NCBI GenBank assembly: GCA_035623825.1 | Contig: DASPSR010000022.1 | Span: 1 to 64,000, forward strand | Length of the DNA stretch: 64,000 nt | Reading direction: 5' to 3' | Source of the DNA: Nitrospirota bacterium | Lineage (GTDB): Bacteria; Nitrospirota; UBA9217 | Part shown: piece after piece, positions 2,199 through 58,599 of the stretch | Position numbering within the stretch: position 1 is the stretch's first letter | How the letters are laid out: every line of letters begins with the position of its first letter | Made by a program: the position numbers and the translations under genes | The notes under the pieces: model-generated | The model's database searches: none | The model's input: only the letters and a program-made list of their open reading frames with translations | What the model was told of the DNA's origin: nothing

Positions 2199-3842
2199 AT
2201 GAAACGCTGGAGTTTGATTGCTTTCGTTGTTGTACTTTTTTCCGGACTTTCGATATTTCTCGCTGCCTGCGGCGGCAGCGGAAGCTCATCTATTGGAGGA
2301 ACAGCTTCCCAGGGGACTGTCAACATGTCTGTTACCGACGCCCCCGGAGATTACGACCATGTGTACATCACGGTGAAAGATGCTTGGTTCAATACAAGCG
2401 ATGTAGCCGACCCGCGCGCGGCGGATTGGCACAAGATCCCGCTTGCGGCACCGGTGACCGTTGACCTCATGTCGCTCTCTAACGGTCAGATGCAGGCCAT
2501 CTGGAGCAACATAAACCTTACCGTCGGGGCCTATCGGCAGATCAGGCTGTTCCTTGTGCCGACCTATGCTTCAAATCCACCCGCAGGCCATCAGTATTAC
2601 AATGAAGTCGTCATAGGGTCGTTGACCTATCCGCTGTACATCCCGGACCCTGACCATGGCATCCAGATAATCGGCACATTTACTGTGTCAGGTGGAGGCA
2701 GGCTTAAACTTGCTTTCGACTTCGATGCTGGCGAAGACATTGTAGAATTCCATGACGGGGTGGATTATATTTTGAAGCCGCGGATGAAATATTTCGATCT
2801 GGACAATGCGGGAGCCATTATTGGCAAGCTCTCGTCCACCGGTACGTTCACAACGGCTTCTCATTACGTGATCAAGGCAGAGCGCCTTGCCACGGCGGCC
2901 GAAATGCTGGCCACCGGCAGTACGGGCACCTATCATGTGATAAGACGCTGGACCGTTCCCAACACAGACGGCACTTTTATCCTGTATCCCGTGTCTACTC
3001 TCGAAACGAACACTTGGGACGTGGTTATCCGCGGGGAGAACATCGATACTTTAATCATCAAAGGGGTCCCGATCACGAAAGGAGCGACCCCGGCTAGCGG
3101 CGCCACGGACCTCGGGACCATCATCACCACGCCGACAACTACGCCTAATAATGACTACATGGTCGCAGGAACCATTGGGTCGCCGACCGGTGCATGGGTG
3201 CAGTTCTATCAAACTCTTCCGGGCTCGGGAGAGTATCCGTATGAGATCCGGTTCAGGCACTTCAACCCCTTGTGGGGCGGGTTCCACCAGACTTTTATGC
3301 TGAACGACGATCAGGTGCAGGTCGGAACTTTTGTTAGCAGCGGCGCAACACTCACTTTCACTTCGGTGACCCCTGCGAACGGTATCGGCACATATGATGC
3401 CGTGGCCGGCGCCCTCATGTACCAACGCAGCGCCTCAACAGTCGTCACTTCAGCAACAACGACAGTTCCGTTTACGACTTTAAGCATCATATCGTCCTAT
3501 TCGACCAACACCGTAACAGGTAACATTTCATTGGGGACGGACGCAGCGATGCAAAGCATGATGTTGGGGCAAATGAACAGTGGCCTTTTGTTCGCCGTAC
3601 AGGGCGGCATGGTCGTCAACACGCTCAATAGCATTAACAGTACTATAGATAATCAAATGAGCAGTGGTGGGTCCTATCAAATCAATCTTCCGGGCGGTTA
3701 CCCTGGAGCATTCTACGGAATTGACGCAGTCGCTTGGGAGGCCCCCTTGCCGAGCATATATAAGGCGATAGCAATACCTCAGATCGTTGATCTGCGCACG
3801 GGGAACGATACTGCAAATATGCAGATGCTGCCCTTGTGGTAG
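2199..3842 (+). CDS. DUF4382-domain lipoprotein
   Basis: Lipobox LAAC followed by a G/S linker; VNMSVTDAP..YDHVYITV, GAYRQIRL, FDFDA and YILKP motifs; AGGAGG RBS. Confidence 0.85.
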   Translation: MKRWSLIAFVVVLFSGLSIFLAACGGSGSSSIGGTASQGTVNMSVTDAPGDYDHVYITVKDAWFNTSDVADPRAADWHKIPLAAPVTVDLMSLSNGQMQAIWSNINLTVGAYRQIRLFLVPTYASNPPAGHQYYNEVVIGSLTYPLYIPDPDHGIQIIGTFTVSGGGRLKLAFDFDAGEDIVEFHDGVDYILKPRMKYFDLDNAGAIIGKLSSTGTFTTASHYVIKAERLATAAEMLATGSTGTYHVIRRWTVPNTDGTFILYPVSTLETNTWDVVIRGENIDTLIIKGVPITKGATPASGATDLGTIITTPTTTPNNDYMVAGTIGSPTGAWVQFYQTLPGSGEYPYEIRFRHFNPLWGGFHQTFMLNDDQVQVGTFVSSGATLTFTSVTPANGIGTYDAVAGALMYQRSASTVVTSATTTVPFTTLSIISSYSTNTVTGNISLGTDAAMQSMMLGQMNSGLLFAVQGGMVVNTLNSINSTIDNQMSSGGSYQINLPGGYPGAFYGIDAVAWEAPLPSIYKAIAIPQIVDLRTGNDTANMQMLPLW

Positions 3843-4492: not shown

Positions 4493-5350
4493 ATGAATTA
4501 CATAACTGTAGGTAAAGAGAATTCGACCGATATAGACCTATACTACGAGGATCATGGTACGGGTAAACCTATCATGCTGATTCACGGTTGGCCACTGAGC
4601 GGCGCTTCCTGGGAAAAGCAGGTGCCAGTCCTGGTAAGTGCCGGTTACCGAGTCATCACCTACGACAGGAGAGGGTTCGGAAAGTCCAGCAAGCCGCTGT
4701 CGGGCTACGATTATGATACCTTGGCAATGGACTTGGACAAGCTCATGACGAAGCTCAATCTTCGTGATACTACGCTGGTGGGCTTCTCGATGGGCGGCGG
4801 CGAAGTGGCCCGTTATATCGGCTTATACGGTACAAAGCGCATAAGCAAGGCGGTCTTCATGTCTGCGATTCCGCCATTCCTTTTGAAGACGCCTGACAAC
4901 CCGGAAGGCGCGGATGGCAGCATCTTCGATGGGATCAAGAGCGCCATAGTCGCAGATCGTCCGGCATTTCTCACGGCCTTTCTTTCAAATTTCTACAACG
5001 TTGACGTCCTCAAGGGAAAGAAGGTCAGCGAAGAAGTCGTACGTCTCAGTTGGACCATTGCTGCCATGGCCTCACCGAAAGGCACGCTTGACTGCGTCCA
5101 GGCCTGGTTGACCGACTTCCGGAAGGACCTGAAAAACATCGATGTTCCCACCCTGATCATTCACGGCGACGAGGACCGGATCGTTCCTTTCGCCGCAAGC
5201 GGAAAGCGGATGCCCGAGTTGATCAAGGGCAGCCGGCTGTCTGTGATCAAGGGCGGGCCGCACGGCATGAACTGGACGCATGCCGAGGAACTCAACCATG
5301 AGCTGTTGGACTTCCTGGGAGAGAAAAAGGTGGAGAAGATTGCCGCCTAG
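4493..5350 (+). CDS. alpha/beta hydrolase, non-heme haloperoxidase/arylesterase family
   Basis: LIHGWPLSG, YDRRGFGKS, GFSMGG nucleophile elbow, HGDEDRIVP, GGPHG; ATG 4493 after GAGGAG. Confidence 0.92.
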   Translation: MNYITVGKENSTDIDLYYEDHGTGKPIMLIHGWPLSGASWEKQVPVLVSAGYRVITYDRRGFGKSSKPLSGYDYDTLAMDLDKLMTKLNLRDTTLVGFSMGGGEVARYIGLYGTKRISKAVFMSAIPPFLLKTPDNPEGADGSIFDGIKSAIVADRPAFLTAFLSNFYNVDVLKGKKVSEEVVRLSWTIAAMASPKGTLDCVQAWLTDFRKDLKNIDVPTLIIHGDEDRIVPFAASGKRMPELIKGSRLSVIKGGPHGMNWTHAEELNHELLDFLGEKKVEKIAA

Positions 5351-5378
5351 CTGACGAGCAGTACTTTGTTCGTCATTT

Positions 5379-5491
5379 CCGGAGGTGGGGGACACGATAT
5401 TCGAATCTTCAATGCGTAGTTTCTCCCTGGAATAGGGGATATGGTAAAACATCCTGGCAAGACATGAGACGGTGTCCCTCACTTGCTCCGG
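5379..5491. repeat. imperfect long inverted repeat (REP/MITE-like)
   Basis: CCGGAG-GTGGGGGACAC ... GTGTCCCTCAC-TTG-CTCCGG arms enclosing about 75 nt. Confidence 0.45.
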
Positions 5492-5817
5492 TTAAAAATA
5501 AAAATCCTGCCTGCAGCCGTTCTATTCTCTTGGAAATACGTAATATTTACGCCGGGATCAGCATATCATAGTTCAGCATATACCAAATATATGATCCATT
5601 AGGTACGCTCTTCTTTTCAAGAGACAATGCCTTGCCTTGACAAGTCCTTTTCTGTCTGGTTAACTCAATTTGTACCTCGCTCATGAAATTATGAACATGA
5701 TGTTGCACGAATGAGCTTTTTTATGAATATGCCTTCTCTGATTCTTTTGACTATCGGCGATAGCCGATTGGCTGGTTTCAGTCTTTCATACGCATCAGGA
5801 TGAAAGGAGGAGATTGC

Positions 5818-52648: not shown

Positions 52649-54124
52649 ATGATGGGAATAAATGATGGACAACACCTATCCCTCTTGCGAAAAATCGCCC
52701 GTCGGGCGATGATCGAACGAGGGCTTCTCCCGGATTTCTCTCCCCGGGCGCTCGCCGAGCTGGAAAATATCCACGGGCCTGCGACAAAAGCTGAGGAGGC
52801 GGTGCGCGACCTGCGGCACCTTCCCTGGTGTTCGATAGACAACGATGATTCACGAGATCTGGACCAGCTCACCGTTGCGGAAGCAATGCCTGGCGACAGC
52901 GCGAAGGTCCTTGTCGCCGTTGCCGATGTAGATGCTCTTGTCAAGAAGGACTCGGCACTCGATGAACACGCTCACCAAAACACCACTTCGGTGTATACCG
53001 CGGCGGAGACATTTCCGATGCTGCCCGCGAAACTCTCGACCGACCTGACTTCACTCAATTACGAATCAGAACGATTTGCCGTGGTCGTCGAAATGATCGT
53101 CGCCAAGGACGGATCGCTTCAGAAGTCCGATGTCTATGTAGCGCTGGTCCGCAATCAAGCAAAGCTCGCTTACAACAGCGTCGCAGCTTGGCTGGATAAT
53201 GCAGGGCCAATGCCGTCGGAGATCGGCTCTGTTCCCGGCCTCGCCGAAACGCTGCGGCTTCAGGACCGTGTGGCGCAGCAGATGAAGACGCTCCGGCACG
53301 AACACGGTGCGCTGACCCTTGAGACAATCGAAGCACGCTTGGTTTTTGATGACGGCGAGCTCAAGGATTTTGAGGCAGAGAAAAAGAACAGGGCAAAAGA
53401 CATTATTGAGGATTTCATGATCGCGGCGAACGGCGTTACCGCGCGCTTCCTTGCTTCCAAAAGTCTGCCCTCATTGCGGCGCATCGTCCGGACCCCCAAA
53501 CGATGGGACCGGATCGTCGAGCTTGCCTCGGAACACGGCTTCACTCTGCCCTCGGAGCCTGATCCAAAGGCCTTGGAGCAGTTTCTCATACAGGCCAGAG
53601 CTTCTGACCCGCTTCGCTTCCCGGATCTTTCCCTTTCCGTCATCAAGCTTTTGGGTGCGGGTGAATACGTAGTCGAACAACCCGGGGGCACATCAGACGG
53701 CCACTTCGGCCTTGCAGTCGCCGATTATACCCATTCCACAGCCCCGAACCGGCGCTATCCGGACATCATCACCCAAAGGCTTTTGAAAGCCGCAATAGAG
53801 GGGCATTCACCTCCCTACGGGAACGACGAACTGGCAGCGCTCGCAACTCACTGTACGGAGAAGGAGAATGCCGCAAAGAAGGTCGAACGGCAGGTCAGAA
53901 AATCCGCAGCAGCGCTGCTGCTGGAACCACGGATCGGCGAGCAGTTCGATGGCGTGATCACGGGGGCAGCAGAAAAAGGCACCTGGGTCCGAATTTTCAA
54001 TCCGCCTATCGAGGGAAGGCTGACGAGCGGTTTTGAGAAGATGGACGTCGGCCACAGACTGCGTGTGCAACTGGTCAGTGCGGACGTCCAACGCGGATTT
54101 ATTGACTTCAGGAAGGTGGGCTGA
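52649..54124 (+). CDS. RNB-domain exoribonuclease (RNase II family) with C-terminal S1 domain
   Basis: SIDNDDSRDLDQ, IIEDFMIAAN, HFGLA..YTHSTAPNRRYPD. Confidence 0.93.
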   Translation: MMGINDGQHLSLLRKIARRAMIERGLLPDFSPRALAELENIHGPATKAEEAVRDLRHLPWCSIDNDDSRDLDQLTVAEAMPGDSAKVLVAVADVDALVKKDSALDEHAHQNTTSVYTAAETFPMLPAKLSTDLTSLNYESERFAVVVEMIVAKDGSLQKSDVYVALVRNQAKLAYNSVAAWLDNAGPMPSEIGSVPGLAETLRLQDRVAQQMKTLRHEHGALTLETIEARLVFDDGELKDFEAEKKNRAKDIIEDFMIAANGVTARFLASKSLPSLRRIVRTPKRWDRIVELASEHGFTLPSEPDPKALEQFLIQARASDPLRFPDLSLSVIKLLGAGEYVVEQPGGTSDGHFGLAVADYTHSTAPNRRYPDIITQRLLKAAIEGHSPPYGNDELAALATHCTEKENAAKKVERQVRKSAAALLLEPRIGEQFDGVITGAAEKGTWVRIFNPPIEGRLTSGFEKMDVGHRLRVQLVSADVQRGFIDFRKVG

Positions 54125-55108: not shown

Positions 55109-55338
55109 AGCGGCCTTACTGCACCCTTTTGCATTTAAATGTTAGTTATACGTTATCCCTGTTGTAATTTCTTGCACGCCTGTCTCATCGCAGCTGCAGA
55201 GATTGAGCGTGAGTGCAGGCGTCGGAAAACAGGGTGGAGGAAACAGGAGTGAATCGACTGTCAGCCCTGGCCTTCCGATATAGCCAAGATGCCGGGGCGA
55301 GCTTGACTTAAGTCAGTAGCTTTGATAGATTAAAGACA

Positions 55339-55356
55339 GTGAGAAACGATTCTCAC
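55339..55356. promoter_or_regulatory. palindromic operator-like site upstream of the riboswitch
   Basis: GTGAGAA-ACGA-TTCTCAC, just upstream of a TTGACA at 55364. Confidence 0.45.
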
Positions 55357-55396
55357 ACGTTCATTGACAGAAAAAGGAAGATGTGAGTTTATATTC

Positions 55397-55491
55397 TTCT
55401 CTGCTCAGAGCAAACTGGGGGAAACCCCGGGACGCAGAGCAACGGGACTAGCAGGGTAACTGAAACGAATGTCCGCCGAGCCGCCAGAGAT
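55397..55491 (+). ncRNA. GEMM-I (c-di-GMP-I fold) riboswitch, A20 variant, predicted to sense 3',3'-cGAMP
   Basis: P1 UCUCUG/CAGAGA; A-GCAAAC; P2 UGGGG-GAAA-CCCCG; GGACGCAGAGC junction; P3 ending GCCGAGCCGCC; the base before GCAAA (55409) is A. Confidence 0.85.
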
Positions 55492-55509
55492 TATCTCTGG
55501 CGGCTTTTT
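55478..55509 (+). terminator. riboswitch expression-platform terminator
   Basis: GAGCCGCCAGAGA-TTA-TCTCTGGCGGCTT plus T-run; the 5' arm is the aptamer 3' strand. Confidence 0.85.
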
Positions 55510-55538
55510 ATATTTGTGGAGAAGGAGGAAGACGTGCC

Positions 55539-57308
55539 ATGGCCAATACATCGCGCAGCAGAGGCAGATCAAAAGAAAAGAGATCTACTCCTCGCAAAGC
55601 TGCGAAGAAGTCTGTGAAAAAAAAGAAAGTTCTCAAAAGGAAGGTCAGCAGGAAAGCTGCGGAGAAGATCGTTAAAAGATCCATTCCAAAACCGCAGAAC
55701 AAGATTCCTCTTCCCGGCAGTGAACGGTCTGCTCTTCCGGGGGCACGCGTTGTCGGTCCAGCCGATCCGACCGAACGCATCCTGGTGACGGTGCTCGTCC
55801 GGCGTCGTCCCGGAAGCAAGGATCTCACTGCCATGATCGAGGAGACGGGCGCCCGCAGGCCCCATGAACGCAAGCACCTGAGCCGTGAAGAATTCGCTGC
55901 TTCATATGGCGCCGATCCTCATGATATCAAAAAAGTTGAAGCGTTCGCTCACGACTACGGAATCGACGTTGTCGAATCCGACGCTGCGCAGCGCCGCGTA
56001 GTGCTCTCCGGAACCGTGGCTGCCCTCAGTACCGCCTTCGGCGCCTATCTGGCTGACTACGAACATCCGGGAGGCGCCTACCGCGGGCGTACAGGGTCCG
56101 TGCAGGTGCCTGAAGATCTCGCGCCCATTATCGAAGCAGTCTTAGGTCTGGATAACCGTCCCCAGGCCCGTCCCCACGTGCGTGTCTCGAAACAGCAAGA
56201 GGGAGCAGCCAGCCCCACGGAAAGTACCTCTTACACGCCGCTTCAAATAGCGCAGCTCTACAACTTCCCGCAGGGAGCAAACGGCAGAGGACAGTGCATC
56301 GCCATCATCGAGCTCGGTGGTGGATACCGGACTACGGACCTCAAGGACTACTACAGCGCCCTCGGAATTGCCATGCCGAAGATCGCGAGCAAGTCCATAG
56401 ACGGAGGCCGCAATAAGCCCATGGTGGATACGAATGCTGACGGCGAAGTGCTCCTTGATATCGAGGTGGCCGGGGCAGTCGCCCCGCTCGCGAAGATCGT
56501 GGTATACTTTGCTCCCAACACTGACGCGGGCTTTCTTGACGCGGTCAAGAGCGCTGTCCACGACAAGCGCAACAAGCCCTCGGTGATCTCGATCAGCTGG
56601 GGAGGGCCGGAAAAGGGATGGACTCGCCAGGCGATGCAGGCCATGGACCAGGCTTTCCAGGAAGCCGCAACTATGGGTGTAACCGTGTGCTGTGCGGCCG
56701 GGGACGCCGGGTCGTCCGACCTCCGCCCGCCGGAAGCCGATGACGGACTTCTCCATACCGATTTCCCTGCGTCCAGTACCTATGCACTTGCCTGCGGAGG
56801 CACCCGGCTGAAGGGGTCTGGTGCCATCATCAGGGAAGAGGTTGTCTGGAACGAAGGGAGAAATGACGGCGCTACGGGAGGGGGAGTGAGCGACGTATTC
56901 GACCTCCCGAAATGGCAGGCAGGGGCCAGCGTCCCTCCGTCGGCTAACCCCGGCGGACGCATCGGCAGGGGAGTCCCCGACGTGGCAGGAGACGCCGATC
57001 CAATCACGGGCTATCAGGTCCTGGTGGATGGACAGAAGGGTATTATTGGAGGAACCAGCGCGGTGGCTCCGCTCTGGGCCGGCCTGATCTCCCTTCTGAA
57101 TCAGAAAATAGGCTCCGCTGTCGGATATCTCAATCCGCTGCTATACAGCCTTCCCGCTGCTTCCGGGGCGTTTCACGACATAACGGCAGGCAATAACGAC
57201 ATCACCGGCAACAACGGGGCCTACAAAGCCGGCCCGGGTTGGGACGCCTGCACGGGATGGGGGTCTCCTGACGGAACCAAACTTTTGAGCGCCTTGAGCG
57301 GCAAATGA
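55539..57308 (+). CDS. S53 (sedolisin/kumamolisin) serine protease with prodomain and Lys/Arg-rich N-terminal tail
   Basis: GEVLLDIE (Glu/Asp), SISWG, AAGDAGS, GVPDVAG.ADP, GGTSAVAP (Ser), GWDACTGWGSP. Confidence 0.93.
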   Translation: MANTSRSRGRSKEKRSTPRKAAKKSVKKKKVLKRKVSRKAAEKIVKRSIPKPQNKIPLPGSERSALPGARVVGPADPTERILVTVLVRRRPGSKDLTAMIEETGARRPHERKHLSREEFAASYGADPHDIKKVEAFAHDYGIDVVESDAAQRRVVLSGTVAALSTAFGAYLADYEHPGGAYRGRTGSVQVPEDLAPIIEAVLGLDNRPQARPHVRVSKQQEGAASPTESTSYTPLQIAQLYNFPQGANGRGQCIAIIELGGGYRTTDLKDYYSALGIAMPKIASKSIDGGRNKPMVDTNADGEVLLDIEVAGAVAPLAKIVVYFAPNTDAGFLDAVKSAVHDKRNKPSVISISWGGPEKGWTRQAMQAMDQAFQEAATMGVTVCCAAGDAGSSDLRPPEADDGLLHTDFPASSTYALACGGTRLKGSGAIIREEVVWNEGRNDGATGGGVSDVFDLPKWQAGASVPPSANPGGRIGRGVPDVAGDADPITGYQVLVDGQKGIIGGTSAVAPLWAGLISLLNQKIGSAVGYLNPLLYSLPAASGAFHDITAGNNDITGNNGAYKAGPGWDACTGWGSPDGTKLLSALSGK

Positions 57309-57410
57309 AGTACATGGGGGCCGTAACATGAGATTGAGAAGTCCCCGGGGTCGGTCACACGGGTTCCCTCGGGTCCATGGCATACCCGCGTTAGGAGGGA
57401 GGAATGTCCT

Positions 57411-58406
57411 ATGCCGCAAAACAAACCCAACCCCTTGCAACATGTGGTAATGATTGTTAAAGAAAATCACTCCTTCGACAATTACTTCGGAACCTTCCCC
57501 GGAGCCTTAGGCGCAAAGATGGTGCACTCCGCCAATCCGCCATCGTCGGATCCCGATCATCGTCATGGTGCATGGTTGACGCGCGACAAGACCTCTGTCC
57601 GAATGCAGTTCATCGAAAAGGATATCCCCGACTACTTTGCCTATGCACGGCAGTTTGTCCTGTGCGATCGCTATTTCACCGATGTAGCAGGGCCATCGAC
57701 GCCCAATCACCTGATGCTCATAGCCGCTGCCTCGCCGATCATCGACAATCCGCCGCGCTACCGGCTTCCCGTAGGCACTCCGTTGTACAACCTTCCGTCG
57801 CTTCCCATGAGCCTGGAAAAGAAGGGGCTGACATGGCGGAACTACGGAGGTTACGCATTCGATTTTATCCAGGATCTCCACGGAAAGCCTCAGTTCAAGT
57901 CTGAGCAATTCGCTCAGGACGCGGCTGCGGGAAATCTCCCGCATGTCTCGTGGGTTTATGCGCCTCATGACGCGAGCGAACACCCTGCTGACCCGATCGA
58001 TAAAAGCAGCAATCCCTTAATCGGCAACGTCACCCATGGCATGGCATGGACCGTTGCCCAGGTCGATGCCATCGTAAAGGGCGGCTTATGGCCAAAGTCG
58101 GTCATTTTCATCACATGGGATGATTGGGGCGGCTGATTTGATCATGTCAATCCGCCTGAAATCGAGAAGTGGACCGATGGCACGCAGTTCCGCTACGGGT
58201 CGCGCGTCGGCTGTCTGGTGCTCTGCCCCTATGCCAGGCAGGGATACATTTCAAACACCGTGCATTCACACGTGAGCCTGCTCAAGTTCTGTGAAACCCT
58301 GTTCAGCCTGCCGGCGCTGAATGACCGCACGGCGAATGCAGATGATATGTCAGATTGTTTCGACTTCAACCAACAGCCCGCGGCTCCGCCGAAAAGCTCT
58401 TCGTAG
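57411..58406 (+). pseudogene. phosphoesterase (phospholipase C/acid phosphatase family), 331 codons, with one in-frame TGA at 58134-58136
   Basis: KENHSFDNYFG, GPSTPNH, SEHP, TWDDWGG*FDHV.PP, YGSRV, HVSLLKF.E; the frame continues unbroken into the 58218-58406 ORF. Confidence 0.8.
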
Positions 58407-58599
58407 CACGCTGCGGTCAGCGTTAGGCATACTCGAGAGCACCGGGGATCCGTTGGAACTTATCGAAACATGCACAAGCGCTATGGGTCGCGCCAAATAG
58501 CGCATAACCCGCCAAACCCTGACAAACCCGCCTCCGGAAAACTCTTCTTTTCGCAACCCGCCCGGCAGAACAAGAAAGAAAAATCGATCAAAAGAGAAT

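Follow-up and report, generated by a model that had tools for sequence, protein, structure and literature searches.

Positions 1 to 64,000 of contig DASPSR010000022.1 (assembly GCA_035623825.1, Nitrospirota bacterium; the whole 64,000-nt stretch is referred to here as the window, and the assembly as the host genome) include a riboswitch aptamer of the GEMM-I family, followed by a gene for a kumamolisin-like peptidase of family S53 and a phosphoesterase gene. The base with which this aptamer would read its ligand is an adenine, A20 in the numbering of the Vibrio cholerae aptamer Vc2. It appears fairly probable that the aptamer, when bound to a cyclic dinucleotide, most likely 3',3'-cGAMP (cyclic GMP-AMP; cGAMP below), blocks an intrinsic terminator and thereby acts as an ON switch for the kumamolisin-like gene. 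The ON mechanism, as read from the arrangement of the RNA, is rated much likelier than the preference for cGAMP.

The aptamer and its ligand-reading base

A cmscan search of the window gave a single Rfam match, to c-di-GMP-I (RF01051; c-di-GMP, cyclic di-GMP), at 55399-55488 on the forward strand. The score was 48.1 bits (gathering score 35; E 2.5e-6), and the match extended over model positions 1-87/87. The same element was also above cut-off in an Rfam search of the whole genome. A full GEMM-I aptamer had been proposed at this place in a first-pass annotation made from the letters of the window, and the coverage of the entire model bears this out. The parts of the aptamer are as follows (P, paired region; J, junction).

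55398..55403, + strand: 5' strand of P1, UCUCUG, pairing 6/6 with 55485-55490
55399..55488, + strand: GEMM-I aptamer (c-di-GMP-I, RF01051), full model
55404..55409, + strand: J1/2, CUCAGA, ending in the ligand-reading base A55409 (Vc2 G20, Gs1761 A14), placed by cmscan and the junction layout
55410..55435, + strand: P2 hairpin with GAAA tetraloop, from the cmscan alignment and the fold
55436..55438, + strand: equivalents of A47, G48 and A49 (A55436; G55437 is the G of GCAGAG), from the cmscan alignment
55439..55482, + strand: P3 hairpin with the tetraloop-receptor region, from cmscan; the alignment is poor in its interior (posterior probabilities 2-6)
55483..55484, + strand: J1/3; C55484 (Vc2 C92, Gs1761 C75) pairs with a ligand guanine, from the alignment, PMC6140456 and PMC6274999
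55485..55490, + strand: 3' strand of P1, CAGAGA, from its pairing with 55398-55403

The G of RF01051 model position 11, which closes the 6-nt J1/2 just 5' of P2, was aligned with A55409. In the Geobacter aptamer Gs1761, the reported layout is P1 at 1-8/76-84, J1/2 at 9-14, P2 from 15, J2/3 at A41 and J1/3 at G74-C75, with A14 as the final base of the 6-nt J1/2 before P2 (PMC6274999). Gs1761 A14 is the counterpart of Vc2 G20, and the ligand's second guanine is paired with C92 (PMC6140456). This equivalence and this layout together define A55409 as the counterpart of Vc2 G20, and the adenine assigned to that position in the first-pass annotation is thus confirmed. The related Rfam model RF03167 likewise has a 6-nt J1/2 in its structure line. 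Both A55436, the equivalent of the intercalating A47 of Vc2 and A41 of Gs1761, and C55484 equal the consensus in the cmscan alignment, and the sequence at 55434-55439 is GCAGAG as compared with GCAAAG in the Rfam consensus. As judged by the alignment, the element is a member of the GEMM-I family on each feature that can be tested, and it has the A20 mark of the GEMM-Ib subclass in A55409.

Expression platform

The elements flanking the aptamer include a putative promoter upstream and a terminator that overlaps its 3' end.

55303..55331, + strand: promoter-like site, TTGACT, 17 nt, TAGATT (9/12 matches, TG before the -10 element)
55478..55515, + strand: intrinsic terminator, formed by a hairpin at 55478-55506 and then TTTTTATATTT; the stem has 13 pairs, 8 of them G-C, and its 5' arm is the aptamer 3' end
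55522..55528, + strand: Shine-Dalgarno sequence AAGGAGG, with the start codon at 55539

The terminator hairpin alone has an energy of -24.5 kcal/mol. In the minimum free energy fold of 55385-55520 the terminator forms at the cost of P1, and an RNA restricted to the aptamer forms P1. The 5' arm of the terminator (55478-55490) includes C55484 and the whole 3' strand of P1, and the switch therefore reads as ON. A terminator sharing the 3' strand of the aptamer, with the same logic, had been drawn in the first-pass annotation and is found at 55478-55506, followed by a T-run. The cGAMP switch upstream of pilM in Geobacter metallireducens is built in the same way, with a terminator that sequesters C75 and with ligand binding that prevents termination (PMC9262584). 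The ON reading can be regarded as well founded in the sequence.

In the preferred reading, a transcript beginning near 55338 would fold into a GEMM-I aptamer with an adenine as the ligand-reading base. A bound cyclic dinucleotide with at least one guanine would hold P1 (55398-55403/55485-55490) and C55484 in the aptamer, the terminator hairpin 55478-55506 could then not form, and transcription would read through into the kumamolisin-like gene and the phosphoesterase gene or pseudogene. When no ligand is bound, the terminator would win. The ligand would most likely be cGAMP, possibly with some response to c-di-GMP, and the enzymes would be made and active. Logan contigs of one RNA library (run X8; depth 2-6) match 55302-55464, 56211-56547, 56737-56893, 57197-57398 and 57629-57849 letter for letter, although DNA carry-over is possible as their source. 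Such contigs cannot show transcript ends; the gap at 55512-56147 proves nothing, and the run is uninformative on termination.

A subclass with invariant A20

The host genome (3.24 Mb in 67 contigs, 89.65% complete), DNA of which is present in peat metagenome runs, includes 19 GEMM-I matches, 18 of them above cut-off. Position 20 is G in 11 of these copies and A in 8. The signature CUCAGA/GC...GCAGAGC is found in three A20 copies, namely the window copy, a near-twin on contig C31 and a form with a long P3 on contig C53. Of the other five A20 copies, two have a G-U second pair and three share their scaffold with the G20 copies, one of these three scoring below cut-off. When 10 of the host copies were rescanned, 4 scored higher with RF03167 (c-di-GMP-I-GGC) than with RF01051.

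The taxonomic class of the host consists of a single family with 19 genera and 64 genomes. The signature, searched as AGAGCAAAC-N12-22-CGCAGAGC, was found in 47 of these 64 genomes, and a reversed control pattern gave 0 hits. When both variable bases were left open, A was present at position 20 in 68/68 matches in the class, and position 48 was G in 63 and A in 5. Across a phylum sample of 401 genomes the A20 motif was found in 69, being present in 48/64 genomes of the host family and in 21/337 elsewhere. The subclass sequences fetched for comparison likewise number 69 (64 G48 and 5 A48 copies), and the ligand-pairing C equivalent to Vc2 C92 is kept in 69/69.

Two types were distinguished among them. 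Type A (26 copies, including the window copy and all 5 A48 copies) has a short P3, and its P1 core is CUCUG/CAGAG in 23 copies; the other 3 have CUCUG/CGGAG and one extra base in the junction. Type B (43 copies) has a long insertion in P3, and its P1 core is CUUUG/CAAAG in 41. Between types A and B the middle P1 pair is thus changed on both sides, a covariation that supports P1, perhaps through only one or two evolutionary events. The same terminator design as in the window is found in 16/26 type A copies. The remaining 10/26 have no terminator, and a CAGAG-like or ACGG/GCGG-like stretch in or beside their Shine-Dalgarno box can pair with the 5' strand of P1, which would again be an ON logic.

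The gene products behind the switches differ between the types. Type A copies precede genes for Big_2-repeat lipoproteins in 16/21 cases with G48 and, by similarity, in all 5 cases with A48. Type B copies precede a conserved operon, complete in 35 and truncated in 2 of the 43 cases, which encodes a CarboxypepD_reg-like lipoprotein, an 857-aa PEGA/TPR protein, a PD40 beta-propeller and a TPR protein. The Big_2 lipoproteins and the envelope operon are typical surface or envelope outputs for this riboswitch family. The long-P3 switch on C53 is itself followed by the four-gene envelope operon (L249; C53:24600-30900), as at ~36 related loci (L131-L188), an arrangement shared by most of the genomes in the class. 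Two other A20 switches of the host genome, at C26:744-822 and C61:63-141, have no terminator and lie directly 5' of genes whose products begin with a signal peptide and a CxxCH-like motif. The products are probable cytochromes, which recalls the Geobacter regulon.

Position 48

The first-pass annotation had suggested that GCAGAG in place of GCAAAG may alter specificity. This suggestion is weakened by the exchange of A48 and G48 between orthologous switches of orthologous genes. The proteins controlled by the A48 copies L247 and L248 are 79-83% identical to that controlled by the G48 copy L181 of the same genus. For A48 L246 and G48 L164 the identity is 69%, and for A48 L245 and G48 L158, which lie 6.8 kb apart in one genome, it is 73%. 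All five A48 copies precede orthologs or close paralogs of G48-controlled genes. As A48 and G48 interchange with the regulon unchanged, a change of ligand is argued against, and G48 probably leaves the ligand as it is.

A compensatory role for G48, in a G-C pair with C55482 (C in 69/69 sequences), was considered and is not relied on. The P3 pair A42-U73 of Gs1761 (PMC6274999) would join position 48 to the base at C55482. The Rfam structure lines pair position 49 there, as an A.C mismatch, and are one register off that published layout. A literature search for Vc2 A47/A48 found nothing within its reach, which did not extend to the primary structure papers.

It is very unlikely that the A20/G48 pocket reads a different nucleotide signal, be it a linear dinucleotide or a mixed cyclic dinucleotide other than cGAMP. 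Two pocket-adjacent positions do depart from the Rfam consensus, and Rfam already splits off variant GEMM-I families, one of which (RF03167) has hits in the host genome. Nevertheless, the C that pairs with the ligand guanine and the intercalating A47 are kept, A20 is the known solution for binding cGAMP, and the alternation of G48 and A48 described above also speaks against a novel signal.

The ligand and its candidate synthases

The presence of A20 is the published determinant of cGAMP recognition (PMC6140456, PMC6456294). Because the guanine-pairing C is kept, the ligand should hold at least one G. The invariance of A20 in 68/68 subclass matches, set beside the 11 G20 switches that the host genome keeps, favours cGAMP. 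The presence of 11 G20 and 8 A20 copies, with 3 of the latter on the G20 scaffold, fits two separate signals.

Several findings limit the case for selectivity towards cGAMP. The G20A mutant of Vc2 binds both c-di-GMP (53 nM) and cGAMP (120 nM) to a similar degree, and dual specificity is also found in a natural switch with A20 from Clostridium (PMC6140456). The pair after position 20 is G-C in the window copy, as in the Rfam consensus, and C-G in the other copies of the host, a difference that may bear on selectivity. The remaining points concern the enzymes that would supply the ligand.

The host genome gave 17 GGDEF matches, 13 of which are domains of the canonical Asp type. One gene for such a canonical domain (634-aa frame, domain at 5131-5592 of locus L250, on C31) is divergent from the second copy of the riboswitch module, whose aptamer lies at 3353-3442 on the other strand of the same locus. 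The best candidate for a Hypr-type synthase is a 378-aa GAF-GGDEF protein (C13:236907-238040; L199:910-2043), in which the Asp that would read guanine is replaced by Ser. Among solved structures it is matched best by the Hypr enzyme GacA (6d9m, E 1.4e-30), and the Ser is aligned with GacA Ser348. Near full-length orthologs (identity at least 56%) are encoded by 62/64 genomes of the class, and the Ser is kept in 30/30 orthologous loci fetched. One ortholog (G014:C8:95114-96190; 56% identity) has three internal stops, 2 TGA and 1 TAG, and is probably a pseudogene. However, in the host protein and in 30/30 orthologs the Ser is combined with GGEEF, a combination reported as inactive, and natural enzymes with Ser or Thr are described in the same source as exclusively GGDE[F/Y] (PMC6456294). 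In view of that rule, the conserved GAF-GGDEF protein is either an exception or no synthase. Furthermore, an ortholog was present in 0/337 genomes outside the host family (E 1e-90), 21 of which carry the A20 motif.

Three membrane HAMP-GGDDF proteins of the host genome are further candidates; the base-reading position is Ser in two of them and Asn in the third.

C27:67586-69028 (3.6 kb past the window end): HAMP-GGDDF protein
C35:20022-21425: HAMP-GGDDF protein
C17:8713-10095: HAMP-GGDDF protein

GSU1937 is reported as a second cGAMP synthase (PMC8835794), and the likeness of the two proteins with Ser to it is by description only, which also counts against a firm assignment. The HAMP-GGDDF family was found in 96/401 genomes of the phylum sample. 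Outside the host family it is present in 9/21 genomes with the A20 motif and in 32/316 without it. This co-occurrence is suggestive only: a single family supplies five of the nine genomes, the motif is a narrow one, and related genomes do not count as independent. The search for Hypr-type enzymes proposed in the first-pass annotation thus succeeded in finding Ser-type proteins, but the best of them pairs Ser with a GGEEF motif, which is published as inactive, so that the case for cGAMP synthesis in the host is ambiguous.

Alternatively, the signal for the switch in the cell may be c-di-GMP, or c-di-GMP and cGAMP in equal measure, with A20 tuning affinity rather than the choice of ligand. This has a lesser but real likelihood, given that A20 RNAs, including Gs1761 and the natural dual switch, bind c-di-GMP by means of an adenine that is protonated (PMC6140456). 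The predominance of Asp-type domains in the host genome and the Ser/GGEEF combination in its sole GacA-like enzyme (PMC6456294) point the same way. On the other hand, no G20 variant was found in the sequence context of the subclass, the 11 G20 switches would make a second class for the same ligand superfluous, and the genome does encode Ser-type GGDEF and GGDDF enzymes, which are conserved. A preference for cGAMP is about evenly balanced, and the ligand may be either cGAMP or both cGAMP and c-di-GMP.

The kumamolisin-like protease and the phosphoesterase gene

The two genes behind the switch in the window are the following.

55539..57308, + strand: pro-kumamolisin-like S53 peptidase, 589 aa (PF09286, Pro-kuma_activ, 8e-23; PF00082, subtilase)
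57411..58406, + strand: PF04185 phosphoesterase gene (phospholipase C/acid phosphatase family), with an in-frame TGA at 58134-58136

The product of the first gene, described as a sedolisin in the first-pass annotation, is by alignment a close kumamolisin homolog. It matches pro-kumamolisin 1t1e with E 1.4e-184 over residues 55-586, and the catalytic motifs DGEV.LDIEVAG, AAGD.GS and GGT[S]AVAP (which hold the Glu/Asp, the oxyanion Asp and the Ser) are aligned. As judged from its letters, 1t1e is a Ser-to-Ala mutant at the catalytic Ser.

When read from the translation, the N-terminus of the S53 protein consists of ~50 Lys/Arg-rich residues with no hydrophobic signal-like stretch, and no such stretch is present at the N-terminus of the phosphoesterase protein. 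The claim that both hydrolases are without signal peptides therefore stands. That this marks an unusual intracellular output does not, as the trait is shared by the whole kumamolisin-like family. Of 80 homolog loci, 62 were scored for signal peptides, the 18 dropped for want of a start codon before the match including the three nearest relatives. A hydrophobic N-terminal 12-mer was detected by a crude script in 0/62. In pro-kumamolisin, a chain of 552 residues, the alignment starts at residue 14. Taken together, the 62 homologs and the alignment to 1t1e define the lack of a signal peptide as a family trait. Kumamolisin was purified from culture fluid. An extracellular role of the S53 protein may thus be considered.

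The Lys/Arg-rich tail of ~50 residues (window 55539-55700) is also present on a paralog encoded on C31 (L250) and on the ortholog in genome G004 of the same genus (L237:1495-1650). It is absent from the 62 scored homologs of other phyla, and homologs in other phyla begin 10-20 residues ahead of the conserved prodomain.

The first-pass annotation had carried the frame of the second gene to 58406, an end that is reached only through the TGA at 58134-58136. The 241-aa open reading frame 57411-58136 matches PF04185 with 3.8e-32; when read through, the match improves to 5.6e-52 and extends to profile position 356/356. Solved relatives of the PF04185 protein are phospholipase C and acid phosphatase. 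In G004 the 335-aa ortholog is intact, with Trp at the place of the TGA. Three other peat metagenome runs (X5, X6, X7) have the same TGA letters in their contigs with no alternative listed, though contigs drop rare variants and the three runs may be one campaign. The TGA is read as a nonsense mutation, a point that weighs against a working two-gene output. Selenocysteine at this codon is unlikely, as the ortholog has Trp there; a search for a selenocysteine insertion sequence was not made.

How general is the wiring of the switch to the protease?

The first-pass annotation had noted this output as one not known to be described. Consistent with this, no published case of a riboswitch before an S53 peptidase was found in a literature search, the 2015 discovery gene tables being outside its reach.

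Relatives of the S53 protein were found at 265 loci of species-representative genomes, and the best 80, from many phyla and with nearest identities of 68-69%, were examined. No GEMM-I element was found upstream of the S53 homologs at these best 80 of 265 loci. A search of the 80 loci with nhmmer, using a profile of the 19 host aptamers, gave nothing beyond two hits at chance level (E 0.37 and 5.7). An Rfam search of 8/80 loci, the nearest relatives, detected no GEMM-I. Six hits of a loose regular expression in the 80 loci were rejected, having neither the fold nor a leader position. A phosphoesterase gene lies beside the S53 gene at 1/80 loci (L072, ended by the contig end), and the two are also adjacent in G004.

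Within the class, the only S53 ortholog is that of G004 (80% identity), and four genomes of another genus have proteins of 32-33% identity. No GEMM-I was detected within 1.5 kb upstream of the G004 operon (L237) by Rfam at E 0.01, which bears against a general role of the switch; control by the switch is therefore not needed for these genes as such. The expectation that S53 and phosphoesterase homologs would share the riboswitch is thus not supported either by the ortholog in the same genus or by the 80 homolog loci.

DNA homology between the window and G004 extends over 55522-58418, from the Shine-Dalgarno box to just past the second gene. An RNase II-type exoribonuclease gene (RNB and S1 domains) lies upstream in the window at 52649-54124 on the same strand and has no homology at the G004 locus. 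The S53 cassette therefore lies in different contexts in the two genomes.

A module of 213 nt, 55303-55515, which begins with the first base of the promoter-like site and includes the leader, aptamer and terminator, is 79.5% identical over 215 nt to a copy on C31. The latter precedes a gene for a di-haem oxidoreductase (PF06537), and behind this gene lies the second paralog of the kumamolisin type, 77.6% identical and truncated where the contig ends. From the arrangements in the window and on C31, both kumamolisin paralogs of the host thus lie behind the same module. Either the module was recruited in the host lineage or it was lost in G004. The protease output is seen only in the host genome, at two loci.

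These observations raise the question of whether the window copy is a decaying or neutral one, that is, a duplicated leader with no regulatory role, placed ahead of a cassette on its way to being lost. The nonsense codon of the phosphoesterase gene, fixed in the contigs of the three further runs, the ortholog of the same genus that has no switch, and the restriction of the association to one genome would fit such a scenario. Against it, all pocket bases have stayed intact, as have P1, the tetraloop and the terminator, and the same holds for the S53 gene, catalytic motifs included. In addition, the two host copies keep the functional bases at ~80% overall identity, meaning that differences have accumulated outside them. 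Decay is therefore considered improbable to a high degree, and an ON switch for the protease gene is preferred.

Comparison with known systems

The closest known relatives are the GEMM-Ib switches of Geobacter, such as Gs1761 before pgcA and the switch before pilM of G. metallireducens. These share with the window element the Rfam family, the fold, A at the G20 position, the ligand-pairing C and the intercalating A. They also share transcriptional ON control by a terminator that takes the aptamer 3' strand together with the ligand-pairing C (PMC9262584, PMC6140456, PMC6456294). Copy numbers are similar, with 19 in the host and 17 in Geobacter sulfurreducens (PMC6456294). Unlike those switches, the element described here is from a different phylum and has a G-C pair beside A20 and G at position 48. 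Outputs also differ, being Big_2 lipoproteins, the envelope operon and, in the host only, a kumamolisin-type protease, as compared with cytochromes and pili in Geobacter. Vc2 has the same fold and, as in the Rfam consensus, a G-C pair after position 20, but has G20 and senses c-di-GMP. As its G20A mutant is dual-specific (PMC6140456), A20 does not settle the ligand.

Kumamolisin and kumamolisin-As (S53; 1t1e and 1sio) have the aligned catalytic motifs and a precursor with no signal peptide in common with the host protein, which differs in its 50-aa Lys/Arg-rich N-terminal tail and in its location behind a cyclic-dinucleotide riboswitch. The host GAF-GGDEF protein resembles GacA (GSU1658/Gmet_1914; 6d9m) in the Ser at the Ser348 position, but has GGEEF for GGDEF and no receiver domain. 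Two host HAMP proteins resemble GSU1937, by description, in the combination of Ser and GGDDF (PMC8835794).

Significance

If the A20 class senses cGAMP, Hypr-type cGAMP signalling would be extended to another phylum. The 69 closely related A20 aptamers, with two P1 types and A48/G48 variants, are a natural set for the study of selectivity, and the conserved Ser/GGEEF cyclase lets the Goldilocks model for the choice of substrate by GGDEF enzymes be tested directly on a natural case. The protease output represents a single-species wiring and an example of a portable promoter-riboswitch-terminator module, and it hints that use of an acid protease goes together with a surface-associated lifestyle.

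A bolder and only tentative view is that an uncultured peat and soil lineage beyond Geobacter may have a second cyclic-dinucleotide channel. Such a channel would be read by the invariant-A20 GEMM-I aptamers and fed by Ser/GGEEF or GSU1937-like GGDDF cyclases. In the host species it would be wired twice to kumamolisin acid proteases that lack signal peptides and have polylysine tails. Were this true, the rule that Ser needs GGDEF would be broken if Ser/GGEEF cyclases feed the channel, and a signal of the surface lifestyle would be tied to protein scavenging in acid peat.

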